Made by a program: the position numbers and the translations under genes | The notes under the pieces: generated by a model | The model's database searches: none | Told to the model about the DNA's origin: nothing | What the model saw: the letters and a program-made list of their open reading frames with translations, nothing else | Assembly (NCBI GenBank): GCA_040389905.1 | Contig: JAZJZK010000002.1 | Location: 23,401-87,400, forward strand | Length of the DNA stretch: 64,000 nucleotides | Direction: 5' to 3' | From: Gemmatimonadota bacterium | GTDB lineage: Bacteria > Gemmatimonadota > Gemmatimonadetes > Gemmatimonadales > Gemmatimonadaceae | Shown: in pieces, positions 15,216-57,020 of the stretch | How positions within the stretch are numbered: the stretch's first letter is position 1 | How the letters are laid out: each line of letters opens with the position of its first letter

Positions 15216-16433
15216 TCAGAACGTTCGAACGATAACGGGCACCGACGACGATATCGTGGTGCCAGTGCCCAGTTGGCCACGAGAATTATCGCCCCAACAT
15301 GCGACGCGACGATCCTCGAGCATCGCACAGGTGTGAGACGCTGTCGGAGAAACAGCCACCACTTTCGCGACGCCGGCCACCTTCGTCGGACTGAGCACGC
15401 AATCGAGAGGATCACTCGGGATACCAGAAACCGCACTGCATTGGATCGTGCCAGTTCCACCGGTCTGACCATCCTTGGTGTATCCCCAGCAATACAGCTC
15501 CGCATCGGTCGATATGCCGCACGTCGGCATATTGATGTTGTTCGCGTTTCCCGCCTGGATCGACGCAAAGACAACATTCCCGGAAACGGGATACGGCGTT
15601 GGTGTTTGTGCTTGAGCCAGCGCCGCGCCGAGTTGCCGGCTGTTGTTGAGTCCCCAGCAGAACCCAGCACCCGCGGTGGTCACACCGCAGGTGTACGCGC
15701 CGCCTGCGCTGATCATCTTGAACTTGATGCCGCCGGCGACCAGCACGGGCACTGTACTGATGGCCAGCGTGCTCGCGATGCCAAGCTGACCGTAGCCGTT
15801 GTGTCCCCAACAGTATGCGTCATTCGAGCTGGTGAGCGCGCAGGCATGGATGAGCCCCACGGAGATCGACGTGAACTTCAACGTTGTGGCAACAGGAACC
15901 GGATTCGCCTGTACGTCTACCGAGTTGTTCCCGACTTGCCCGTATTGATTGCCACCCCAGCAGTACGCCGCTCCCTCCGCCGTCAGGCCACATGACGTTG
16001 GCCCGCCCGTCGCGAGCTGAGCAAACTTGACTGGAGAGATGATGGCCGTTGGTTGCGCATTCGTGACGCCGCTCGATTGGCCCCAGCAATACGCAATGCC
16101 ATCGCGTCCCAGCGCGCACGAGACCCCTACGCCGACGTCAATGGCCTGGTAGGTGCCGGTTCCTGCCAGGGCGGCCGGAGCAGGTGCGTCGCTCGTACTG
16201 CCCGTGCCGAGTTGGGAAAGGTTGTTGGCGCCCCAGCAGTAACCTTGTCCGACACTGGTCAGCGCGCATGTCACCAGCTGTCCCGTGGCAATACTGGCGG
16301 CGGCAGACGCGACAAGCGTCACTCCGCCCTCCGGCGAGACGCCGTCACCACCGCAGCTTCCCGCTACCGCGGCGAACGCCAGACTTGCGATGCAAGTGAG
16401 CCTGGGGCGCAGAGGGTTCCGATGGTGAAGCAT
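15216..16433 (-). CDS. RCC1/BLIP-II repeat lipoprotein
   Basis: Lipobox-like AGSC; repeated CAL...AYCWG.N..GQLG units. Confidence 0.88.
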   Translation of the reverse strand: MLHHRNPLRPRLTCIASLAFAAVAGSCGGDGVSPEGGVTLVASAAASIATGQLVTCALTSVGQGYCWGANNLSQLGTGSTSDAPAPAALAGTGTYQAIDVGVGVSCALGRDGIAYCWGQSSGVTNAQPTAIISPVKFAQLATGGPTSCGLTAEGAAYCWGGNQYGQVGNNSVDVQANPVPVATTLKFTSISVGLIHACALTSSNDAYCWGHNGYGQLGIASTLAISTVPVLVAGGIKFKMISAGGAYTCGVTTAGAGFCWGLNNSRQLGAALAQAQTPTPYPVSGNVVFASIQAGNANNINMPTCGISTDAELYCWGYTKDGQTGGTGTIQCSAVSGIPSDPLDCVLSPTKVAGVAKVVAVSPTASHTCAMLEDRRVACWGDNSRGQLGTGTTISSSVPVIVRTF

Positions 16434-16502
16434 GCGAGCCTCCTCCTACACACAAGTAGCTAGCGGACCGTCACCGAAGTTCTGAGAGCAGCAGGGAGCA
16501 CC

Positions 16503-16666
16503 GGCACATTGAACGCGGATTGAGCGGATTGACCAGCGAAACAGTGATTGGTTCGGCGAGGCACGTCAGCAGCAGTTCACCGTGAAGTCTTCAAGCATGT
16601 GCTTCTCGTGTTTCACGCTTGATCATTGTTTTCTTTTCGATCCGCTCGATCCGCGTTCAATGTGCC
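16503..16666. repeat. Gene-less inverted-repeat element with CGGAT 9-bp units (MITE/REPIN-like)
   Basis: Left GGCACATTGAACGCGGATTGAGCGGATTGA..AAACAGTGAT pairs with right ATCATTGTTT..TCGATCCGCTCGATCCGCGTTCAATGTGCC. Confidence 0.85.
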
Positions 16667-16707
16667 CGCGCGCCGACCGACTCGGACCCGACGTTCCAAC
16701 CGACCTG

Positions 16708-23494: not shown

Positions 23495-23688
23495 TACCGC
23501 AGAGGACGCAGAAGCTCTGCCCTCCGTGCACTCATTTGTGCGCCGGACCGCAGAGGGGCGCAGAGGACGGCGGAACAGATTTAGCGGGAGTTCGGTATCC
23601 GGTCTCTCGCAGTCCCTCTGCGACCCTCTGCGGTCCGGCGCATCGGAGGTCGCTCAGGGTGCGCATGGCCTCCGCGTCCTCTGCGGTA
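23495..23688. repeat. Nested inverted repeats of CAGAGG-type 9-bp units
   Basis: Outer TACCGCAGAGGACGC / GCGTCCTCTGCGGTA; inner TGCGCCGGACCGCAGAGGG / CCCTCTGCGGTCCGGCGCA (23539-23642). Confidence 0.88.
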
Positions 23689-23768
23689 AAGCTTATCGCT
23701 TTGCTGCAGGTCCTAACTAAACTAACTGAACCGTATTGCTCCTAGACCTAGATCGACAACTCCAGGAT

Positions 23769-23891
23769 TGTCACCTCGACCGAGCGTGGACTCGAGCGCG
23801 TGCATCCCAAAGCCAAAGCACGTGCAGGCCCTTCGCGGAGTTTACCCTCGAGGAGCGCAAGCGACGAAGGGCTCAGGGCGACAAAACGAGC
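23769..23891. repeat. Degenerate REP-like doublet
   Basis: TGTCACCTCG start, GTGCAGGCCCTTCG...CGAAGGGC internal stem, CTCAGGGCGACAAAACGAGC end. Confidence 0.75.
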
Positions 23892-23932
23892 GGGCGAGCA
23901 GCCGACATGCAGTCCTCTGCGTGCAATTCAGT

Positions 23933-25840
23933 TCACTGTTTGTGCGAGCCATTCTCCCGAATTCTGCCGATACCAACTCCGCTCGACGTGTAGAGCGCCA
24001 AGGCGATTCGCCCCGCAAGCAAATCATTCCTCTCGACCTCACCGAGTGTAAGCGTGCCACGCGCTGACACAGCACCGGGCCCAGCGAGCCGCCGTAGCAC
24101 TGGCCCCTTGTGCGCTGCACTATCCCGGTCGAGGCTCACGCCAAACAGCCGATCGGCCGGGACGCCCGCGACTCGCACGACGTAGTCGAGGGACCGGCGC
24201 GTCGCGTCGAAGGTAAGAACAGCCTGTGCGGTTGCCGACCCGACCTTCGCATTCGCCCGGAACTGCCGAGGCGCCGGCGCCTTGCCCGCTACGAGCGGAG
24301 GCGTTGTGCTCGGCGCGCGCCTTGGATGCACTGACTGTTCATAATCGTACGCGAGTGCGAGCAACCGGGCGTCAGCCAGCGGGCGGCCGAGCATCTCGAG
24401 TCCGATTGGAAGGCCATCCGGGGTAAATCCCGCCGGCATGCTCAAGGCAGGCAATCCCGTAACCGCGCTGAGTTGGCAATTTGCGCCGCGCTGGGGCTCG
24501 TTGATCAGCGCTGCCTTTCGGCGCATCGTCGGATACACGAGCGCGTCGTAGCGATTCGAGTCGAGGAAGGCGGCCACGAGATCGCGCGCAACCTTCCGTC
24601 GCGCAAGCGCGGCGCGATACGCGTCGCTATCTCGCGTGCCCATCGCGTCTCGCCTGCGGAAGGCGACGTCCAATGCGGTGTGATACAGCCCGCGCTCGAG
24701 GATCTCTGTCAGCGACTTCACCGGCGCGCTCGGAATGGTCGCAAGGAAATCGCGCAGATCGAACTTGAATTCATAGTCGATGACGCCGGCCGCGCCGATG
24801 AGGCTGTCCAGGCTGGGAATGACGACATCCGTCACGACGGCGCCGCGTGCCTTCATTCGTTCGAGCGCGGCACGAACGACCCGGGCGCCCTCCTGATCAT
24901 CCGCTTCGGTGCCAAAATGGGCCGTGAGCACGGCGAGACGCGCGCCGCGCAACGACGCCGAGTCGAGCGACGCAACGAAGCGAGGAAGTGGCTTGCCGTC
25001 GAGCAGTCGAGTTGCCGAGTCAGCCGGATCGGCTCCGATCGTCGCGTCGAGCGTGATCGCGAGGTCCGTCACGGTACGCGCGAGTGGTCCTCCCACATCC
25101 TGCGTGTGCGACAGCGGAACGATGCCACTGATACTCGACAAACCCTTGGTCGGTCGCAGCCCGAAGAGATTGTGGACCGCCGAGGGAATTCGAATCGATC
25201 CGCAGGTGTCGGAGCCCATGGCAACGGCGGCAAAGCTCGCGGCGATCGCGGCTCCGCTACCTCCGCTGGAGCCGCCCGGATTCCGGTCGGGATCGTACGG
25301 ATTGCAGGTCTGGCCGCCGAGGGAACTGATGCTCGTGATGCCGGCCGCGAGCTCATGCATGTTCGACTTCCCAAGAATGATGGCGCCGGCGTCGCGGAGT
25401 TTCTGAACCTGGAAGGCGTCGAAGCCGGTGCGCAAGCCGGCGAGGGCGATCGAGCCTGCCGACGTCGGCATGTCGGTGGTGGAATAGTTGTCCTTGAGGA
25501 TGATGGGAATGCCATGCAACGGACCACGAAACTTCCCGCTGCGACGCTCACCGTCGAGCCGCGATGCTTCGGAACGAGCGTTCGGATTGAGCGCGATCAT
25601 CGCATTCAGTGAGGGTCCGCGATGATCGTAGGCTGCGATGCGCGCGAGGTAAGCGTCGACGAGCGCGAGCGACGTGAGACGGCCGGCGTTCATCGCGGCC
25701 TGCAGGTCGGGAATGCTCGCTTCGTAGACGATGTCCGTCGCTCCGTTCGACGGTTGCCGCTGCCCGAGTGCGTTGTCAGGCGGAAGACAAAGTGCGAAGG
25801 CCACAAGAACGAACACTTGACGATGCAACGTTTTGGTCAT
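23933..25840 (-). CDS. Secreted amidase-signature enzyme with extra C-terminal (CHRD-like) domain
   Basis: GPLHGIPIILKDN, GGSSGGSGAA, GSDTCGSIRIP; start MTKTLHR with signal peptide. Confidence 0.88.
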   Translation of the reverse strand: MTKTLHRQVFVLVAFALCLPPDNALGQRQPSNGATDIVYEASIPDLQAAMNAGRLTSLALVDAYLARIAAYDHRGPSLNAMIALNPNARSEASRLDGERRSGKFRGPLHGIPIILKDNYSTTDMPTSAGSIALAGLRTGFDAFQVQKLRDAGAIILGKSNMHELAAGITSISSLGGQTCNPYDPDRNPGGSSGGSGAAIAASFAAVAMGSDTCGSIRIPSAVHNLFGLRPTKGLSSISGIVPLSHTQDVGGPLARTVTDLAITLDATIGADPADSATRLLDGKPLPRFVASLDSASLRGARLAVLTAHFGTEADDQEGARVVRAALERMKARGAVVTDVVIPSLDSLIGAAGVIDYEFKFDLRDFLATIPSAPVKSLTEILERGLYHTALDVAFRRRDAMGTRDSDAYRAALARRKVARDLVAAFLDSNRYDALVYPTMRRKAALINEPQRGANCQLSAVTGLPALSMPAGFTPDGLPIGLEMLGRPLADARLLALAYDYEQSVHPRRAPSTTPPLVAGKAPAPRQFRANAKVGSATAQAVLTFDATRRSLDYVVRVAGVPADRLFGVSLDRDSAAHKGPVLRRLAGPGAVSARGTLTLGEVERNDLLAGRIALALYTSSGVGIGRIRENGSHKQ

Positions 25841-25865
25841 CGAAGTACCGTGAGGTCGGAAACGC

Positions 25866-25894
25866 TTGCGTTTGCCTGCCGCGACCACCACAAT
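25866..25894 (+). promoter_or_regulatory. Putative sigma70 promoter TTGCGT-N17-CACAAT
   Basis: Consensus-like hexamers with exactly 17-nt spacing, 25 nt upstream of the small ORF. Confidence 0.45.
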
Positions 25895-25919
25895 AGTCCC
25901 TCCAGAACTTCGAGAGTCA

Positions 25920-26003
25920 ATGATGAAGAAGCCATTCGTTGCGCCCGTACTCACGAGCGAAGACCGACTCACCACGCTTGGTAGCTCGTCTGTTCCAACC
26001 TGA
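25920..26003 (+). CDS. 27-aa small ORF MMKKPFVAPVLTSEDRLTTLGSSSVPT, RiPP-leader-like
   Basis: Hand-translated. GAGAG upstream, promoter-like sequence before, intrinsic terminator after, [Y/F]xxPxL motif. Confidence 0.6.
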   Translation: MMKKPFVAPVLTSEDRLTTLGSSSVPT

Positions 26004-26024
26004 GTACCAACCGCGCACTTGAAA

Positions 26025-26054
26025 TCGCCAGCCCCTTTTGGGCTGGCGTTTTTC
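26025..26054 (+). terminator. Rho-independent terminator
   Basis: CGCCAGCCC stem / GGGCTGGCG followed by TTTTT. Confidence 0.85.
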
Positions 26055-26140
26055 ATTCAACGCCGAGCGAGCATAGCCGACGAACGTGAGGCACAATACG
26101 TTTGTCGCCGCAGCCAACTAAATGGAGTAGATCCGGATCG

Positions 26141-27418
26141 ATGACCGAGCTCGAGGCTGGTCCAGGAAATAGGGGCCACGCGCCCGCACTGGGGCGCTGG
26201 TGGCAACTGTTTCTCGGCGTGATCTGCATGTCGATGATCGCCAACCTGCAATACGGTTGGACGCTCTTCGTCAACCCGATCAACGACAAGTATCACTGGG
26301 GGCGGCCCGCTATTCAGGTGGCGTTCACGATCTTTGTGCTGGTCGAGACGTGGCTCGTTCCCGCGGAAGGCTACCTCGTCGACCGAGTCGGGCCCAAGAT
26401 GGTGGCGGTCGTATCGGGGATACTGGTCAGCGCCTCGTGGGTCATCTTTTCGTACGCCGATTCGCTGTTCCTGTTCTACGTCGGGGCGGCGGTCGGCGGA
26501 ATCGGTGCTGGTGGTGTGTATGGCGCGTGCGTTGGAAATGCGCTCAAGTGGTTTCCAGACCGGCGTGGGCTCGCAGCCGGACTCACCGCGATGGGCTTTG
26601 GCGCGGGGTCGGCGCTCACGGTCTTTCCCATTGCCGCGATGATCAAGACGGCCGGCTACGAGGCGACGTTCTTCAAGTTCGGCATCGCGCAGGGCGCCGT
26701 CGTGTTCGTGCTCGGGTGGTTCCTGCTCGCGCCGAATGCGGGCCTCAAGGTGCCAGGAAAGTCAGGTGCGGCGGCTGTGGCAGCAACGAAAGAGTACACG
26801 CCGACAGAGATGCTCCGGACGCCGGCATTCTGGCTCATGTATCTCATGTTCGTCCTCATGGCCACTGGTGGTTTGATTGCGACGGCGCAGCTCACGCCGA
26901 TCGCCAAGGACATGGGCATCGCCGAGTCACCGGTGTTCATCCTGGGGATCACGCTGCCGGCGCTGACGTTCGCGCTCTCGATTGACCGTGTGCTGAACGG
27001 CATCAGCCGACCGTTCTTTGGTTGGATGTCCGACCATATCGGACGCGAGAACACGATGTTTGTCGCATTCGGGCTCGAAGGGGTGGCCATTCTTCTTCTG
27101 AACCAGTTCGGCGGTTCGCCGCTTGCGTTCGTGCTGCTCACCGCGCTGGTCTTTTTCGGATATGGAGAGATCTACAGTCTCTTCCCAGCCACATGCGCCG
27201 ATACGTACGGTCGTCGCTTCGCGTCCGCGAACGCCGGGCTGCTCTACACCGCGAAGGGAACAGCGTCATTGCTGGTGCCGTTGAGCAGCCTGATGGCGGC
27301 CGCGATGGGCGGATGGCACGCGGTCTTCATGGCGGCCGCCGTGATGAACCTGCTGGCCGCGGCGCTGGCGCTCCTTGTGCTCAAACCGATGCGGACGCGC
27401 ATGACGAACGGGACATGA
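26141..27418 (+). CDS. oxlT: Oxalate/formate antiporter (MFS)
   Basis: IANLQYGWTLFV.PI, GNALKWFPDRRGLAAGLTA, RPFFGW.SD.IGRENTM, NAGLLYTAKG. Confidence 0.9.
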   Translation: MTELEAGPGNRGHAPALGRWWQLFLGVICMSMIANLQYGWTLFVNPINDKYHWGRPAIQVAFTIFVLVETWLVPAEGYLVDRVGPKMVAVVSGILVSASWVIFSYADSLFLFYVGAAVGGIGAGGVYGACVGNALKWFPDRRGLAAGLTAMGFGAGSALTVFPIAAMIKTAGYEATFFKFGIAQGAVVFVLGWFLLAPNAGLKVPGKSGAAAVAATKEYTPTEMLRTPAFWLMYLMFVLMATGGLIATAQLTPIAKDMGIAESPVFILGITLPALTFALSIDRVLNGISRPFFGWMSDHIGRENTMFVAFGLEGVAILLLNQFGGSPLAFVLLTALVFFGYGEIYSLFPATCADTYGRRFASANAGLLYTAKGTASLLVPLSSLMAAAMGGWHAVFMAAAVMNLLAAALALLVLKPMRTRMTNGT

Positions 27419-28422
27419 AGATCGCCGTCGTGGGTGCCGGTGCGATCGGCGGGTACCTGGGAGGGTGGCTGTCCGCCGCTGGGGAGGATGTCACCTTCAT
27501 TGCGCGAGGGGCGAATCTCGACGCGATTCGGGCGAATGGCATGCGCGTCGTCGGTGAGGATGGCAGGGAGGTCGTCGCAACCGACACGCGCGCCTACGCG
27601 GACATGGGCGAGGCGGGCCCGCACGACGTCGTGTTGCTGACCGTCAAGGCGCATCAGGTGGCTGCAGTCGCCGAGGATCTTGGGCAGCTCTGTCATTCGG
27701 GGACGACGATCGTCACGATGCAGAACGGCATTCCATGGTGGTACTTCCACAAGCACGGTGGGCCATACGATGGTGCTGCTGTTCGCGCCGCTGATCCGGA
27801 TGGTGTCATCAGCCGTCATGTGGATTCAGAACGAATTATCGGGTCGGTTGTCTATCCCGCGGCAACGCTCGTCGCGCCCGGTGTTGTGCATGTTGTGGAG
27901 GGCCGGCGCTTTGCATTGGGTGAATTGAACGGGCAGTGGTCCGCGCGTGTGGAGGCGATTTCACAGCGTCTCGTGAAGGCGGGTTTCAAGGCGCCGGTCA
28001 TCGCGGACATTCGCAATGAGATCTGGCTCAAGGTGTGGGGCAACATGAGCTTCAACCCGATTAGCGCGCTCACGCATGCGACCCTGGTGGATTTGTTGCA
28101 GTTTCCGCTCACTCGGGAACTCAGCATTCAGATGATGAGGGAGGCGGAGGCGATTGCCGGGAAGCTCGGCATCACGTTCCGGGTTGGTATCGACAAGCGG
28201 ATCGCTGGCGCCGAGAAGGTGGGGGCGCACAAGACGTCGATGTTGCAGGATGTGGAGTCGGGGAAAGCGATCGAGCTCGAAGCGTTGGTTGGTGCGGTGG
28301 TCGAGCTTGGAGTTCTCACTGAGACACCGACACCGCATATCGATGCCGTGTATGCGTGTGCGTCGTTGCTGGCGAAGACACTCTCAGATTCTGGCGGACG
28401 TCTGATTATTGCTGGTCCTTGA
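27415..28422 (+). CDS. panE: 2-dehydropantoate 2-reductase family; probable oxalyl-CoA reductase (PanE2-like) by context
   Basis: GAGAIGG, QNGIPWWYF, WLKVWGN..FNPISAL, HKTSMLQD; ATGA overlap with oxlT. Confidence 0.88.
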   Translation: MKIAVVGAGAIGGYLGGWLSAAGEDVTFIARGANLDAIRANGMRVVGEDGREVVATDTRAYADMGEAGPHDVVLLTVKAHQVAAVAEDLGQLCHSGTTIVTMQNGIPWWYFHKHGGPYDGAAVRAADPDGVISRHVDSERIIGSVVYPAATLVAPGVVHVVEGRRFALGELNGQWSARVEAISQRLVKAGFKAPVIADIRNEIWLKVWGNMSFNPISALTHATLVDLLQFPLTRELSIQMMREAEAIAGKLGITFRVGIDKRIAGAEKVGAHKTSMLQDVESGKAIELEALVGAVVELGVLTETPTPHIDAVYACASLLAKTLSDSGGRLIIAGP

Positions 28423-29013
28423 CTGGCCACAAAGACGAAGGGCTCATGCGGATTCGACGGATTGAGCGGATTTCACGGGACGCTTCTCATTGGCGGTGCA
28501 GACAAGTCGGTAGAACTTTGCTTCGGGACCAAAGTGCAGGACCATGCCCACTTCAATATTGGTGGATTTGAGGTAGTTGTACGTTTGGCGAATAGAGATC
28601 TTGTTCATTTTGTACGTCGATTTGGTTTCGACGATGAGTTTGTCGTCGACGATGAGATCCATGCGTTGCGTGCCAAGTTCGTGACCCTTGTACATGACAC
28701 AAACCCTGTACTCTCGCACGACCTTATGACCGCGCTCCCGCAACTCGATTTCTAACGCCTTTACATACAGCCGCTCCAGAAATCCGAACCCGAGGGTGTT
28801 GTACACCTCGTAGAAGGCACCGATCACAGAGCGTGTGAGCCGCTCTTCGAGTAGTTGTCCTTTAGGCATGACCGAATCTTGCGAATCAATGCCTGCCATG
28901 CGTCATCAAAAAACAACGGCCGCGGTGCAAATCCACGCAACGAAACTCGGAACCATCCGCATAATCCGCTAAATCCGCAGAATCCGCATAGAACCCTTCG
29001 TCTTTGTAGCCAG
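28423..29013. mobile_element. Inverted-repeat-bounded GxxExxY cassette inserted in the oxalate operon
   Basis: Left CTGGCCACAAAGACGAAGGG versus reverse complement of the right end CTGGCTACAAAGACGAAGGG (19/20), each followed by four 9-bp CGGAT units. Mobility is inferred. Confidence 0.7.
28444..28869 (-). CDS. GxxExxY protein (PD-(D/E)XK nuclease-like)
   Basis: IGAFYEVYNTLGFGFLERLY (GxxExxY), RMDLIVDDKLIVETK, Q..NYLK. Alternative start 28899. Confidence 0.93.
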   Translation of the reverse strand: MPKGQLLEERLTRSVIGAFYEVYNTLGFGFLERLYVKALEIELRERGHKVVREYRVCVMYKGHELGTQRMDLIVDDKLIVETKSTYKMNKISIRQTYNYLKSTNIEVGMVLHFGPEAKFYRLVCTANEKRPVKSAQSVESA

Positions 29014-29015
29014 CG

Positions 29016-30548
29016 ATGAGCCATTCACCCCAAACGATCACAGATCTCTTGAAGGCAGGCGCAGATGACGCGCCCGCCCTCAGCACCCCTGGCGGAACGC
29101 CACTTTCGTACAACGCGCTCCGCCAACTCGTAGCCGACACTGGCAAGGCGCTCAACGAAAAGGCCATCGGCGCCGGCGACCGTGTCGCGATCGTCCTCGA
29201 CAACGGCCCGGAAATGGCCGCCGCGTTCCTCTGTGTCGGCGCCGCGGCAACAGCGGCCCCGCTCAATCCGAACTACCGCGCCGACGAATACGAGTTCTAC
29301 CTCACCGATCTGCGTGCAAAGTTGCTCATCGTCGGAGCAGGAAAAGAATCGCCCTCGATCGGCGTGGCAGAAAAACTCGGCGTTCCCATCGCCCGCCTCA
29401 CGCCCCATCCAGACAAGGGCGCGGGTAGTTTCACAATCGACTTCGGTGATTTCTCGCCGACAGAAGGCGCTGGTGCAAGTCGAGAAGTCACCCCCGACGA
29501 CACAGCACTCGTGCTGCACACGTCCGGCACGACCTCCCGCCCGAAAATCGTTCCGCTCGCCCAGAAGAACATCTGTGCCTCGGCGCGCAATATCCGCCAG
29601 TCACTCGCGCTCACGGCGGACGATCGCGGCATGGTCATCATGCCACTCTTTCACATTCACGGACTCATCGCCGCGTTGCTCGCGCCGCTTTCCGCAGGCG
29701 GTGAGGTGTCATGTACGACAGGGTTCAACGCACTGAAGTTCTTCACCTGGCTCGATGAAGTGAAGCCGACGTGGTACTCCGGTGTGCCCACGATGCATCA
29801 GGCGATCCTCCTTCGCGCGCCCAACAACGCCGACATCATCAAGTCACACCGACTGCGCTTCATCCGTTCGTCGTCGTCCTCATTGCCGACACGAGTGATC
29901 ACGGAAGTCGAAGCGCTATACGGTGTCCCGATTATCGAAGCGTACGGGATGACCGAGGCGGCACATCAAATGGCCACGAATCCGCTTCCACCGAAAGTTC
30001 GCAAGCCGGGTAGCGTGGGCCCATCCGGCGGGCCGGAAATCCGCATCGCCGACGAGACCGGCGCCACGGTGCCTGCCGGCGCAACCGGCGAGATCGTCAT
30101 CCGCGGACCCAACGTCATGACGGAGTACGAGAACAATCCGAAGGCCAACGCGGAAGCGTTCTACGGCGATTGGTTCCGCACCGGTGATCAGGGCGTGATG
30201 GACGAGGACGGTTACGTCAGCATCACCGGGCGCCTCAAGGAGATCATCAACCGCGGCGGCGAGAAGATCTCGCCACGCGAGGTGGACGAGATCATCATGG
30301 AGCATCCCGGCGTCCACCAATGCGTTACCTTCGGCATGCCGCACGACATGCTCGGCGAAGACGTCGCGGCGGCCGTCGTGCTCAAGCAAGGCGCTGACGT
30401 CACCGACAAGGAACTCCGTCAGTTCGCCGCCGTTCGTCTCGCGGACTTCAAGGTTCCGCGAAAGATCCTCATCCTCACGGAGATTCCGGTGGGTGCCACC
30501 GGAAAGCTCCAGCGCATTGGCCTCGCACAGAAACTGGGACTCGGATGA
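29016..30548 (+). CDS. Acyl-CoA ligase, probable oxalate--CoA ligase
   Basis: LHTSGTTSRPK, MPLFHIHGL, EAYGMTEAAHQM, WFRTGDQG, INRGGEKISP, TGKLQR (AAE3/Pcs60-like). Confidence 0.88.
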   Translation: MSHSPQTITDLLKAGADDAPALSTPGGTPLSYNALRQLVADTGKALNEKAIGAGDRVAIVLDNGPEMAAAFLCVGAAATAAPLNPNYRADEYEFYLTDLRAKLLIVGAGKESPSIGVAEKLGVPIARLTPHPDKGAGSFTIDFGDFSPTEGAGASREVTPDDTALVLHTSGTTSRPKIVPLAQKNICASARNIRQSLALTADDRGMVIMPLFHIHGLIAALLAPLSAGGEVSCTTGFNALKFFTWLDEVKPTWYSGVPTMHQAILLRAPNNADIIKSHRLRFIRSSSSSLPTRVITEVEALYGVPIIEAYGMTEAAHQMATNPLPPKVRKPGSVGPSGGPEIRIADETGATVPAGATGEIVIRGPNVMTEYENNPKANAEAFYGDWFRTGDQGVMDEDGYVSITGRLKEIINRGGEKISPREVDEIIMEHPGVHQCVTFGMPHDMLGEDVAAAVVLKQGADVTDKELRQFAAVRLADFKVPRKILILTEIPVGATGKLQRIGLAQKLGLG

Positions 30549-31693
30549 CACAGACACCGCCTCCGCCGCTCAATCCTCCCGAGCGTCTTCTCATGGGACC
30601 CGGCCCGAGCAATCCGGACCCTCGCGTGCTCGCCGCGATGGGTGCGAATCCCGTCGGTCACCTCGATCCGTATTTCGTCGACCTGATGGACCATACGATG
30701 GGCGCCCTTCGCGGCGTCTTTCGCACGGCGAACCACCACACCCTGCCGATTTCTGGCACCGGGTCTGCGGGCCTCGAAGCGATCATGCTCAACTTGCTCG
30801 AGCCAGGCGACAGTGCGGTCGTCTGCGTGATGGGCTACTTCGGACATCGGCTTGCCGAGCTCGCGCGGCGCTCGGGCGCAGATGTCCGCACCATCGAAGC
30901 AGGACCGGGCGAGATCATCGATCCCGCCGCCCTCGACGCGATGCTTACCGAGCGACCAGCGAAGCTCGTTGCCTTCGTGCATGTCGAAACGACGACGGGC
31001 GCGTGCCAGCCGATCCAACCGATGGTTGCCGCCGCAAAGAAGCACGGCGCACTGGTGGCGATGGACTGCGTCACGTCGCTCGCCGGTATCGAGCTCGAAA
31101 TCGACAAGTGGGGTGTCGACGCCGCTGGTTCGTGCACCCAGAAGGGGCTCGGCGCACCGGCTGGATTGGGTCCGATCACCGTAGGGCCCGCCGCGATGGC
31201 TGCGGTGCGCGCACGGAAGCAGAAGCCGCACACCTGGTACCTCGATCTCTCACTGCTCTTTCAGTATTGGGGCGAAGACGGCGCCACGAAGAAGCGCGCC
31301 TTCCACCACACCGCGCCTATCCAGAGTATCTACGGCATTCACGAGGCGTTGCGGCTCGTTCTCGAGGAAGGGCTCGAGGCACGCTGGGCGCGCCATCAGG
31401 CGGCGCACGAAACGCTGCTGCGCGGACTTGATCGTCTCGGGTTATCGCTCTTCACGCCCGCCGCAAACCGGTGCGCGACGATCAACGTGATCAACACGCC
31501 TGAGGGCATCGACGAAGCGAAGGTCCGCACCCGGTTACTGGACCTTGGCGTCGAAATGGGTGGAGGCCTTGGTGTGCTGGCGGGGAAGGTGTGGCGAGTT
31601 GGCGTGATGGGCTACAACGCGCAGGACGCGCGCGTCGAGCGTTTTGTCGGTGCGCTGGAGGAAGCTCTGTCTGCGGAGGGGTGGAGAGCGTAA
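30545..31693 (+). CDS. Alanine/serine--glyoxylate aminotransferase (class V PLP)
   Basis: RLLMGPGPS, SGTGSAG, HVETTTG, DCVTSL, TQKGL, HHTAP; ATGA overlap. Confidence 0.92.
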   Translation: MTQTPPPPLNPPERLLMGPGPSNPDPRVLAAMGANPVGHLDPYFVDLMDHTMGALRGVFRTANHHTLPISGTGSAGLEAIMLNLLEPGDSAVVCVMGYFGHRLAELARRSGADVRTIEAGPGEIIDPAALDAMLTERPAKLVAFVHVETTTGACQPIQPMVAAAKKHGALVAMDCVTSLAGIELEIDKWGVDAAGSCTQKGLGAPAGLGPITVGPAAMAAVRARKQKPHTWYLDLSLLFQYWGEDGATKKRAFHHTAPIQSIYGIHEALRLVLEEGLEARWARHQAAHETLLRGLDRLGLSLFTPAANRCATINVINTPEGIDEAKVRTRLLDLGVEMGGGLGVLAGKVWRVGVMGYNAQDARVERFVGALEEALSAEGWRA

Positions 31694-31700
31694 CAACAGC

Positions 31701-31742
31701 AGGTGCAGACCCCTCGACTCGCTTTGCTCGCTCGGGGTGACA
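31701..31742 (+). repeat. 42-bp REP-like unit
   Basis: AGGTGCAGACCCCTCGACTCGCTTTGCTCGCTCGGGGTGACA. Confidence 0.88.
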
Positions 31743-31759
31743 TTTGCCCGGATTGGGCG

Positions 31760-32257
31760 CTATGGCTTCTTCGACTCGATCCGGATTTCCTTGAGTGGAG
31801 CAAGTTCCGTTGGTAGCTCTGTGCTCCCGGCCGGAAAGCCATTCGACTTGAGTACGTACGCCAGCACATCGCTGATGAGCTGGCGTCCGTAAATGCCGGG
31901 ATCGTTCTTCGGCATCGTCGTGCGCACGCGCTCGTGGACGTCACCGACGGTGTAGCCGTTCCAGTTGCCGAGAAAGGCACCGCCGACGAGCGCGGGTGAT
32001 TCGTCGGCGCCCTCGAGCGAGGCCTGGTGGCACTTGGCGCAGTTCTGGTTGTACCCGGTCTTCCCACGCGTCGCCTGGTCTTCGGTGTACACGCTGTCCC
32101 AGACCGTACGACCAGGCCGCTGGCTGAGTGCGTGCCGCGGCGCGACCGTAAAGGCAGCGATGGCGACGAGCATGATCACACCAAGCGTTGTCACCCCGAG
32201 CAAGCGCAGCGCGTCGAGGGGTCTGCACCTCAGAGCTTTACCTCTCATCTCACGCAT
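31760..32257 (-). CDS. Monoheme cytochrome c
   Basis: TVWDSVYTEDQATRG, CAKCH, TMP axial Met; starts 6 nt after the dehydrogenase stop. Confidence 0.88.
   Translation of the reverse strand: MREMRGKALRCRPLDALRLLGVTTLGVIMLVAIAAFTVAPRHALSQRPGRTVWDSVYTEDQATRGKTGYNQNCAKCHQASLEGADESPALVGGAFLGNWNGYTVGDVHERVRTTMPKNDPGIYGRQLISDVLAYVLKSNGFPAGSTELPTELAPLKEIRIESKKP
32189..32230 (-). repeat. 42-bp REP-like unit inside the cytochrome c ORF
   Basis: Reverse complement AGGTGCAGACCCCTCGACGCGCTGCGCTTGCTCGGGGTGACA, near-identical to 31701-31742. Confidence 0.88.
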
Positions 32258-53695: not shown

Positions 53696-53763
53696 AACCA
53701 CGGAGGACACAGAGGACACGGAGGACGCAGAGAACCATGCAGTCCTCTGTGTCCTCTGTGGTT
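53696..53763. repeat. Inverted-repeat hairpin of 9-bp CAC(A/G)GAGGA units
   Basis: AACCACGGAGGACACAGAGGAC pairs with GTCCTCTGTGTCCTCTGTGGTT. Confidence 0.88.
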
Positions 53764-56710: not shown

Positions 56711-56812
56711 GCTCCCGATACACCATCCGAGCGGGCGGGGTCCGCTCTAGGGATCAGCTACAGCCCGGTTCGAGAAGAACGGGGGTTCAAGGACAGAGTC
56801 TTCGGAATTTGA

Positions 56813-56992
56813 ACCGCAGAGGACGCGGAGGAGCAGAGGAACGCAGAGGAAAAGGGAGGTGCAGGCCCTTCGCTGCGCTCAGGGCGACAAAACGAGCACG
56901 TGTCACCCCGAGCGAGCGAAGCGAGTCGAAGGGTCTGCACCTGCTTTCCGCGTTTCCTCTGCGAACCTCTGCTCCTCTGCGTCCTCTGCGGT
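56813..56992. repeat. Complete nested palindrome: CAGAGG 9-bp arms enclosing a REP-like doublet
   Basis: Outer ACCGCAGAGGACGC / GCGTCCTCTGCGGT; inner AGGTGCAGGCCCTTCG / CGAAGGGTCTGCACCT (56857-56942). Confidence 0.9.
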
Positions 56993-57020
56993 AGAAATGA
57001 GCCTGAATGCCGAGCGCTGC

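Follow-up and report, generated by a model that had tools for sequence, protein, structure and literature searches.

Why should two neighbouring genes read in the same direction carry opposite silent-site biases on the two sides of a small insert? The question is raised by a locus in a window of 64,000 nucleotides (the whole stretch of DNA analysed) from a Gemmatimonadota bacterium, in which an earlier note had described an excess of G and T to the left and of C and A to the right of a GxxExxY element. The features concerned are as follows.

26000-28422, + strand: left halo, silent sites G/T-enriched on the top strand; panE plus the greater part of the oxalate/formate antiporter gene
27415-28422, + strand: panE, within the left halo
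28423-29013, no strand assigned: inserted cassette of 591 bp, the GxxExxY gene between inverted arms; midpoint 28718
28423-28478, + strand: left arm, a 20-nt outer stem plus 3-4 GCGGATT/ACGGATT units with a 9-nt period (repeat family R3)
28444-28899, - strand: GxxExxY gene, 151 aa (141 aa from the gene caller's start at 28869)
28650-28700 (best 28680), no strand assigned: centre of the skew flip; change-point fit, chi-square gain of 71
28957-29013, - strand: right arm, which repeats the left one imperfectly in inverted orientation
29016-31400, + strand: right halo, top strand C/A-enriched; acyl-CoA ligase and class V aminotransferase
29016-30548, + strand: acyl-CoA ligase, within the right halo
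30545-31693, + strand: class V aminotransferase, within the right halo

The cassette lies at the panE/CoA ligase junction of an operon, between two + strand genes, and extends from the first base after the panE stop codon to 2 bases short of the ligase ATG. The 3' end of the GxxExxY gene extends into the left arm, and the fold of the cassette gave a z of -4.85 relative to 20 shuffles. One contig of a sequencing run, not independent of the assembly, spans 23864-31730 with 0 differences.

The mirror-image skew is real, and both hand counts on which it had been based were exact (G24 T15 C11 A10 at 28261-28320; C22 A16 G13 T9 at 29101-29160). Third positions of panE at 27775-28422 (216 codons) comprised T53 A17 G93 C53, and those of the ligase at 29016-29495 (160 codons) T20 A30 G31 C79. 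Thus, the left side was G/T-rich as described, while the A-ending bias claimed for the right side was milder, the main shift there being C over G. Residual skew was then calculated with gene strand controlled, after removing the effects of codon family, next base, position relative to the gene end and gap class. When all the repeats of the genome were compared in this manner, as had been suggested, the cassette ranked first among 470 scorable elements (mean 0.55, SD 1.33), with a joint mirror z of 6.5 (left 5.1, right 4.1). It also scored above 759 of 760 repeat-free junctions, the single higher control being a type I restriction-modification specificity gene that lies in an island free of repeats. 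Since the site had been chosen by eye, its standing should be judged by the rank rather than by the nominal z. A scan of 45,240 positions placed the cassette as the second-highest peak.

The skew is centred on the element, as proposed: it flips within the GxxExxY gene, 20-70 bp off the cassette midpoint, a placement that depends on 126 third positions of that gene. The change-point fit gave a decay length of 1000-1500 bp. The left residual fell from +0.44 beside the cassette to about +0.1 at 1.5-2.4 kb, and the right one was -0.35 beside the cassette and -0.04 to -0.20 as far as 2.4 kb. The change is therefore strongest next to the cassette, fades over 1-2.4 kb and reverses in mid-cassette. 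The same polarity had been seen by eye near other repeats of the window. At 750 bp it held for the right side at 53700 (left/right z of 1.2/3.1), but most of the others were weak (1.2/-1.1 at 1845, 1.5/1.2 at 23495, 0.6/-0.4 at 31700 and -2.8/1.7 at 56800).

To describe the substitutions we use the inward strand, which runs 5' to 3' into the cassette (the top strand to the left of the cassette, the bottom strand to its right). At four-fold sites within 750 bp this strand showed changes of -0.157 for C, +0.103 for T, +0.063 for G and -0.009 for A; at two-fold sites T-over-C rose by 0.23 and G-over-A by 0.016. The spectrum was alike on both sides, even though the inward strand serves as coding strand in the left flank but as template in the right one, so coding-strand damage coupled to transcription was rejected as the sole cause. 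Outward transcription from the cassette would be expected to give the opposite sign. Within 1.2 kb, 123 T were observed on the inward strand against 77.5 expected, and 71 A against 78.7, so that the reading of C-to-T on the left and G-to-A on the right held at this locus; across genomes the signal was mostly one of G versus C (see below). The T excess was 1.45- to 1.81-fold across all four 5' neighbours, and by 3' base 1.85 for CpG, 1.74 for CpT, 1.20 for CpC and 0.68 for CpA (4 sites only). Enzymatic deamination, either APOBEC-like at TC or of 5-methylcytosine at CpG, was ruled out, there being no sequence-context preference. Loss of uracil repair was likewise discarded, as three UDG-family genes are present. 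The skew at a replication origin has the sign opposite to that at the cassette, which excluded a local origin.

Gene order was conserved between the focal locus and four orthologous operons (G007, G040, G064 and G066), which ruled out an inversion at the arms; these operons lack the insert and have a gap of 3-38 bp in its place. In 33 orthologous panE-ligase junctions the switch in skew was 0.000±0.137 (maximum 0.20), compared with 0.66 at the focal junction. Its T-A component was 0.18 versus -0.01±0.05 in the orthologues, and its two-fold component 0.62 versus -0.05±0.18. This sequence comparison supports the view that the skew goes with the insertion and not with the host genes. Polarisation against orthologues lacking the element, another proposal of the earlier note, was favourable in part. 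Within 800 bp, 50 third-position changes were toward G/T and 23 away (p=0.002), compared with 25:40 in the G007 lineage, and the asymmetry was absent from codon positions 1 and 2 (29:22). The G066 lineage, without the insert, was also asymmetric (inward C>T at 13/53 versus G>A at 3/74, p=8e-4), and polarisation was weak, because silent sites are only about 50% identical to those of the nearest relatives. No relatives close enough for clean polarisation were found, the best DNA matches in the genus being about 70-73% and the best ligase relatives 77-85% identical in protein; a search for a close cassette-free allele found none. As regards strain variation, of three sequencing runs one contained the stretch and two, of the same study, next to none of it, with nothing usable. 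Since the insertion, C has been depleted from silent sites on the inward strands, in favour of T and, to some extent, G.

Cytosine deamination is faster in single-stranded DNA, and it would act on the inward strands if these were repeatedly single-stranded. We consider some single-strand mutational cause of the skew probable. A toy model with author-chosen parameters, in which the C-to-T rate was tripled, gave -0.13 for C, +0.08 for T, +0.04 for G and +0.235 for T-over-C; roughly a 3-fold rise in that rate would thus be required. The source of the single strands is less sure. They may be 3' tails left by 5'-to-3' resection where the cassette is broken or gapped, a version centred on the cassette to which we give slightly less than an even chance. 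RecJ, which is present in the genome, is a candidate for the resection; an AddAB/RecB-type nuclease domain was not found in this genome (84.6% complete), nor was NurA. Repair from the sister or a donor would extend both 3' ends until they met in mid-cassette, which would explain both the central flip and the reversed gradient of the cassette gene. The inward C-to-T polarity fits the origin by break and resection put forward in the earlier note; we infer the breaks from it rather than observe them.

The candidate cutters that had been named, the GxxExxY protein and SbcCD, are both available. SbcCD (SbcC and an adjacent SbcD-like gene are encoded in the genome) is the counterpart of Sae2/Mre11, and might open the paired arms. 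For its part, the GxxExxY protein might cut or excise its own cassette, or act in homing. It matched TIGR04256 (E 1.6e-32, 112.3 bits; curated cut-off 35) and PF13366 (E 7.3e-34, 117.1 bits; curated cut-off 22). The GxxExxY motif corresponds to G39-E42-Y45, and the conserved columns E42, D81, E91, K93, Q105 and Y109 are all present, the E-D-E-K-Q-Y set being intact in 169 of 193 homologues. A search of PDB sequences gave nothing. The structure model (pLDDT 84) had the Cas4 protein SSO0001 as its best Foldseek match (E 3e-4, TM 0.51) and was matched by VIA to 3ijm (Z 8.7, rmsd 3.5, 101 aligned); exonucleases, restriction endonucleases and junction resolvases were fold neighbours with tied scores. 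By the modelled fold and the catalytic E, D and ExK, the protein is a predicted PD-(D/E)XK nuclease. PF13366 was present in 110/301 genomes of the focal phylum and 83/151 of another. In the portion consulted of Steczkiewicz 2012 (PMC3424549), the function of PF13366 (PDDEXK_3), the family of the cassette gene, is given as unknown and is not linked to repeats or flanking mutation.

The polarity recurred at GxxExxY cassettes of other genomes, but more weakly. Three sets of cassettes differed from neighbouring junctions (p=0.002, 3e-5 and 0.004), the last two sets being pre-specified replications, and z exceeded 3 at 11/57 GxxExxY junctions compared with 7/205 repeat-free controls. The mean z was 0.92 (n=101) versus 0.06 (n=254) in the first replication, and 0.54 (n=48) versus -0.04 (n=113) in the second phylum, where inward G was gained at the expense of A and C was unchanged. 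After de-duplication of sites, 67/101 (p=7.5e-5) and 40/64 genomes (p=9e-4) were positive. Over 158 other loci pooled, G-C was +0.054 (112 positive), T-over-C minus A-over-G +0.015 (p=0.04) and T-A +0.004 (not significant). Thus, C-to-T on the 3'-ended strand, switching at the putative break, was observed at the focal locus and only weakly in the pooled loci. Cassette genes showed the reversed gradient, the 5' half being richer in G/T (+0.066, 109/193, p=4e-4; +0.62 at the focal locus). A steady C-to-T model failed to predict the pooled pattern, and only a post hoc version did so, in which a pulse is followed by decay: after the events stop, T would revert quickly under the GC pressure of the genome and a G-over-C relic would stay, the pattern seen at most other loci.

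No comparison singled out GxxExxY or SbcCD cutting, whether by cargo, catalytic integrity, AddAB or fold energy. The mean z was 0.97 (n=147) with intact catalytic residues versus 1.03 (n=11) with damaged ones, and 0.42 (n=24) with AddAB-like genes versus 0.91 (n=69) where none was found (p=0.39; five ambiguous genomes, mean z 2.5, were left out). Neither the GC3 of the cassette, taken as a proxy for age, nor its inner gradient correlated with the flank score. The other two GxxExxY genes of the focal genome lacked an inner gradient and showed only a small T excess.

The same single-strand chemistry might operate without a break, if the polymerase stalled at arms folded in a single-stranded template and left a gap 5' of the structure. 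On one side such gaps, of about one Okazaki fragment, would lie in the lagging template and on the opposite side in the leading one; they would expose the same inward strands, and the expected polarity would be unchanged, with a reach of 1-2 kb. No cassette nuclease would be needed, in agreement with the positive scores of copies that carry no gene, in all four repeat families, and of five cassettes with four-helix-bundle genes (0.9-2.7), a cargo without known nuclease activity. The two sides also differed slightly with fork direction (0.062 versus 0.039, SE 0.007 each). However, the effect was not predictable from the fold energy of the elements (rho -0.01, n=494), and stalling at each arm would not readily produce the mid-cassette flip or the reversed gradient of the cassette gene. 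Moreover, 10/10 cargo-bearing sites were positive, and their mean of 2.6 far exceeded the scores of gene-less copies whose arms are similar. We regard stalling as unlikely. Single-orientation repeats were positive on both flanks, with no clean one-sided signal, R2 being stronger upstream (0.088 versus 0.044).

A further explanation that we hold to be unlikely is selection on RNA at a new transcription boundary, where outward or antisense transcripts would be C-rich and G-poor, amplifying a gradient common to gene boundaries. C-rich, G-poor transcripts are Rho-type termination signals. A generic gradient does exist, strong at transcription-unit boundaries and weak inside operons, and three genomes lacking GxxExxY genes also had its 5' half. 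The skew at repeat-free junctions, which the earlier note had taken as potentially fatal if equally strong, was of the same sign but milder: 3' G-C was +0.147 at repeat-free unit ends versus +0.224 beside elements (first 15 codons), and the orthologous junctions lacked the switch. The pooled cross-genome signal shares the G-versus-C make-up of this gradient, and codon positions 1 and 2 were unaffected, both as RNA selection would have it. Yet the generic gradient almost lacks T-over-C, which dominates the focal signal: at repeat-free boundaries it was +0.008 at 3' ends and +0.002 at 5' ends (codons 15-100), compared with +0.048 and +0.052 within 200 bp of other elements of the focal genome. 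The focal effect is also several times larger and extends 2.4 kb, the excess holds inside the convergent and inside the divergent junction classes, and a signal was found in a phylum sample without a clear generic gradient past codon 15. In addition, the gradient of the cassette gene is opposite to the generic one, and a search of 28300-29100 revealed no sigma-70-like promoter, although this test was weak. The non-coding flanks of elements count against the single-strand reading: their G-C of +0.05 was close to the +0.04 of element-free divergent gaps, and their T-A was 0.00.

It is improbable that the focal skew is an accident of a heavy-tailed distribution, caused by mosaic or imported gene pieces with other codon habits, on top of a small boundary effect. 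Repeat-free islands reached scores of 5-8 of both signs, the site was selected after being seen, and the asymmetry of G066 at the same locus is chance-like. Against this stand the gene order kept in the four operons, the location of the flip within a 591-bp insert, the smooth decay on both sides and the pre-specified replication, and as an account of the general effect an accident is already largely refuted. Among score peaks of the genome, 14/60 top maxima and 6/60 top minima had an element no more than 400 bp away, against a background of 8.7%. Reverse causation, with cassettes entering DNA already often single-stranded or broken, is very improbable: 27/101 insertion-site clusters were common to several genomes (shared versus unique sites, 1.19 versus 0.71, p=0.14), and a repeat-free 3' G-over-C tail occurred here and not in three cassette-free genomes (340 genes, one genus), which is readable either way, but the switch was absent from the orthologous junctions.

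The break or gap repair reading has partial precedents. In yeast, mutation rises for kilobases to either side of inverted repeats, which requires hairpin opening and 5'-to-3' resection (Sae2/Mre11), according to the parts consulted of Saini et al. 2013 (PMC3681665). These are laboratory rates in a eukaryote, mostly from polymerase zeta errors at long near-perfect repeats, whereas the cassette shows a fixed bacterial compositional scar of C-to-T form beside 56-nt imperfect arms. In break-induced replication and D-loop repair, synthesis leaves single strands, both nascent and template, open to deamination (Osia et al. 2022, PMC9262586, in part), but that yeast system is APOBEC-driven and extends over hundreds of kb; the cassette lacks the deaminase context and reaches about 2 kb. 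Some of the skew found at any junction is of the kind described in Hockenberry 2014 (PMC4069614), where gene starts differ in silent-site use, in connection with weakly structured mRNA around the start codon; a 3' mirror image, kilobase reach or dependence on insertion is not described in the text consulted. REPIN/RAYT, REPtrons and TIRtrons place a nuclease gene between inverted repeats, with many gene-less pairs (PMC3733652, PMC5581495, consulted in part). Similarly, many gene-less inverted pairs occupy intergenic space here: 72/111 R3-containing clusters had R3 matches in +/- orientation, and 59 pairs measured, gene-less or gene-bearing, had a median arm of 32 nt and loop of 68 nt. Unlike REPIN/RAYT, the enzyme is PD-(D/E)XK (PF13366) and not an HUH Y1 transposase, PF01797 not being found in the genome (84.6% complete). 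Unlike insertion sequences and MITEs, no target-site duplication above 2 nt was found at 59 R3 and 57 R4 pairs, with arm ends estimated automatically. The word skew does not occur in the main texts of Di Nocera 2013 (PMC3733652) and Bertels 2017 (PMC5581495) as far as consulted, and we found no description of strand skew around bacterial repeat cassettes in a literature that covered few subscription journals and no supplements.

A more specific proposal, which we consider doubtful, is that GxxExxY is the mobilising nuclease of cassettes without target-site duplication, cutting or excising its own cassette or cutting the empty allele, with two-ended gap repair restoring it as the extended 3' strands meet at its centre. 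The inward strands would be exposed in every round. Flanking silent sites would then record the frequency and recency of cutting at each copy, C-to-T-rich halos marking active sites, such as the focal one, and G-over-C halos those no longer recent. The generic 3' codon gradient seen in repeat-rich bacteria would in part be a relic of vanished copies. The interpretation in the earlier note, taken as a whole, is partly supported. If it is true, small repeat-bounded cassettes rewrite neighbouring bacterial core genes over kilobases, a local mutational force outside current models of codon usage and skew. It would provide a sequence-readable record of cutting or stalling at PF13366-bearing elements, and the function of PF13366 would become testable through strand-biased C-to-T beside the cassette.

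Replication-associated G/T (keto) skew switches at the terminus. The cassette skew resembles it in sign, its G/T-rich strands pointing inward, but is local, decays and occurs at many sites, with a residual of up to 0.4 compared with about 0.01-0.05 for 80-kb blocks of the genome.

The skew lies around a 591-bp cassette (28423-29013) between the panE and ligase genes, with the following features.

28423-28478 and 28957-29013, cassette arms, pairing into a long imperfect stem (fold z -4.85)
28444-28899, - strand, GxxExxY gene
+ strand, all four: oxalate/formate antiporter, PanE-like reductase, acyl-CoA ligase and class V aminotransferase genes

The cassette starts directly after the panE stop codon and ends 2 bases upstream of the ligase start; since the panE-to-ligase gap is 3 to 38 bp in four relatives, the cassette is an insertion. 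The nearest relatives of its protein were Gemmatimonadaceae records, which makes this family the probable group of the host. The protein has a PD-(D/E)XK fold by modelling, and its catalytic residues are intact; such a fold does not distinguish an endonuclease from an exonuclease. Its family, PF13366, is described as of unknown function in the available part of PMC3424549, and those papers listed that use the word GxxExxY concerned other subjects.

A total of 3,990 genes were called in the source genome (G000) with a purpose-built codon model. Four intergenic repeat families (R1 to R4) gave 569 clusters, 470 of them with enough coding flank to score; 43 clusters mostly inside called genes were excluded from scoring. 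The main scores are residuals after subtraction of what control genes show for each codon family, for gene-end position and for the class of the gap.

The earlier note had described G/T-rich sequence to the left and C/A-rich sequence to the right, and both of its hand counts (28261-28320 and 29101-29160) proved exact. The abundance of T-ending codons in the 3' part of panE was borne out (T53 versus A17 across the 216 codons of the 3' two-thirds), whereas the A-ending excess of the ligase, although present, was mild (first 160 codons: C79 G31 A30 T20), the main shift being C over G. With controls, third-position skew gave z values of 5.1 on the left and 4.1 on the right, and a joint score of 6.5, first among the 470 elements and exceeding 759 of 760 repeat-free junctions. 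In a 45,240-position scan of the genome the locus was the second-highest peak; the top peak and most strong opposite-sign peaks lay far from any called repeat. The top mirror score (z 6.9-8.2) fell on G000:C14:153001-154188, which has no called repeat within 13 kb and whose translation suggests a type I restriction-modification specificity subunit gene.

Next to the cassette the residual was +0.44 on the left and -0.35 on the right, and over 2.4 kb it shrank to about +0.1 and about -0.1, respectively. A change-point fit placed the flip at 28680 (range, 28650-28700), with a decay length of 1 to 1.5 kb. The switch was 0.66 at this locus, compared with 0.000 ± 0.137 (maximum, 0.20) at 33 orthologous panE-ligase junctions (4 genomes plus 29 of 80 metagenome loci, the remaining loci having too little of both genes).

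On the strand running 5'-to-3' into the cassette, four-fold sites showed shifts of -0.157 for C, +0.103 for T, +0.063 for G and -0.009 for A, and two-fold sites a T-over-C shift of +0.23, similarly on both sides. A toy mutation-fixation model with a 3-fold inward C-to-T rate reproduced these shifts; no context preference of the base change was found. When substitutions within 800 bp were polarised against three genus relatives, 50 ran towards G/T and 23 in the opposite direction (p=0.002). Taken alone, however, C>T against G>A was not significant (19/84 versus 13/96); silent sites are near saturation. Polarised C>G changes (asymmetry 23 versus 10) were as frequent as C>T, and changes at codon positions 1 and 2 showed no asymmetry (29:22). 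The G066 lineage, which lacks the insert, had its own asymmetry at the same junction (13/53 versus 3/74).

The main confound is that, in arithmetic terms, a junction with a mirror skew cannot be told from one with a 5'-versus-3' codon gradient. A generic gradient of this kind, from C over G at gene starts to G over C at gene ends, was indeed found at repeat-free junctions, strong where the gap was at least 150 bp and weak within operons; beside elements, however, the gradient was stronger and contained an extra component missing from the generic one. At 3' ends, two-fold T-over-C beside elements was +0.100 in codons 1-15 and +0.086 in codons 16-30, whereas gaps of at least 150 bp without repeats gave +0.008 and +0.010. 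Convergent ends, which are boundaries with or without an element, gave +0.114 beside elements (237 ends) versus -0.014 (516 ends, including short gaps; p=4e-6), tandem rows of the same analysis overstating the contrast. In G026, G032 and G034 (L352-L371; 340 genes, one genus), which lack GxxExxY genes, the 5' C-over-G gradient was retained but the 3' G-over-C tail past codon 15 was lacking (-0.014 ± 0.024, versus +0.070 ± 0.008 in G000). G000 has five four-helix-bundle (PF05635) genes (at C6:201658, C9:40401, C6:173814, C7:413479 and C12:208990), and on the flanks of some of them lie periodic, inverted repeats of low complexity from uncatalogued families, so the "repeat-free" controls include some uncalled elements.

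Among 80 GxxExxY loci from GTDB, 57 junctions were scorable once loci below 56% GC or short of flanking sequence had been dropped; mean z was 1.01, and z exceeded 3 in 11/57, versus 7/205 repeat-free junctions of the same loci. A second set, scored identically, comprised 120 stretches picked by position among the 150 matches listed (116 used), and gave a mean z of 0.92 (n=101) versus 0.06 (n=254; p=3e-5), with z above 3 at 14 cassette and 7 control junctions and a reach of ~1.5 kb. When sites with homologous flanks were merged, 67/101 were positive (p=7.5e-5), and 40/64 when then counted by genome (p=9e-4). The match tallies include G117 and G213, but sequences of these two and of G012 were used in no analysis. 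Fifty loci from the phylum of G386, which we take to be Bacteroidota, gave 0.54 (33/48 positive) versus -0.04 (53/113 positive; controls mostly from 20 long stretches; p=0.004); past codon 15 this set showed no generic gradient clearly. In G000, all ten cargo-bearing sites were positive: GxxExxY cassettes (6.7, 2.5 and 2.7), GIY-YIG genes between R1/R2 repeats (2.3 and 2.7) and four-helix-bundle cargo (0.9, 2.7, 1.2, 2.6 and 1.7). The skew is therefore real, linked to insertion and replicated in two further samples; it is general yet usually small, the focal locus being extreme, and there it is C-to-T-like.

Other results fit a simple C-to-T change less well. The pooled asymmetry of 158 other loci was mostly G over C (+0.054), T-A not being significant, and in the third set G was gained on the inward strand at the expense of A. 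With falling GC content, T-A rose (rho -0.22) and G-C fell (rho +0.24) among other loci, as expected if one loss of C shows differently under GC pressure. A modelled C-to-T pulse followed by relaxation, its parameters picked post hoc, came near the pooled values (G-C +0.049, T-A -0.004, T-over-C +0.015). Fold energy did not predict the effect, nor did the integrity of the catalytic residues, the GC3 of the cassette or AddAB status.

Strands with 3' ends towards the site are G/T-rich. Two processes would produce this polarity, namely 5'-to-3' resection and gaps lying 5' of a folded template; both expose the same strands, and we infer a single-strand or repair mechanism. A break or gap in the cassette would be repaired by extension of both 3' ends, which would meet centrally. 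Cassette genes showed a gradient opposite to the generic one (109/193, p=4e-4; sequences related, some from the same genomes). Because of this reversal and of the mid-cassette flip, we tentatively prefer such repair, at somewhat under an even chance, to stalling at each arm, an unlikely alternative. Selection for C-rich outward transcripts would account for the G/C part of the skew but not easily for its size, its reach or the T excess at the focal locus, and seems improbable. G000 carries genes for SbcC with an SbcD-like neighbour, RecJ and UDG; neither PF12705, the nuclease domain of AddAB/RecB, nor NurA was found in this 84.6% complete genome, and PF12705 had no match at E<=1e-10 in 48 of 73 related genomes, several near-complete, so many Gemmatimonadota may lack AddAB/RecBCD-type resection. 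None of the tests run singled out a cutter.

In the parts of the papers available, break-associated mutagenesis beside inverted repeats is already known in yeast (PMC3681665, PMC9262586). The REP/RAYT and TIRtron layouts are known as well, with HUH proteins as their enzymes (PMC3733652, PMC5581495), whereas that of the cassette is of the PD-(D/E)XK type. The literature searched, which did not extend to most subscription journals or to supplements, contained no account of halos of strand skew beside cassettes in bacteria.

R1 and R2 are the commonest repeats of G000 (606 and 293 motif matches), and their palindromes presumably resemble CGTC-type REPs. Inverted copies enclose the GIY-YIG genes at G000:C13:67284-67803 (L350) and G000:C7:365271-365728 (L351); GIY-YIG is a candidate partner of CGTC-type REPs, since these have no dedicated transposase according to the available text of PMC3733652. 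In the window, an inverted R1 pair (31698-32231) surrounds a host cytochrome c gene (31760-32257). The layout is the one seen in the nuclease cassettes; the halo at 750 bp is slight. R1/R2 palindromes are nested within or next to R4 inverted arms at 56807-56998 and 23495-23891, and an RCC1-repeat protein gene (15216-16433, - strand) adjoins an R3 element (16495-16674). Elsewhere, G000:C43:42775-44907 holds a helicase-like frame of 645 aa ending in six AT-rich repeats, in which a MWxTMT motif recurs.
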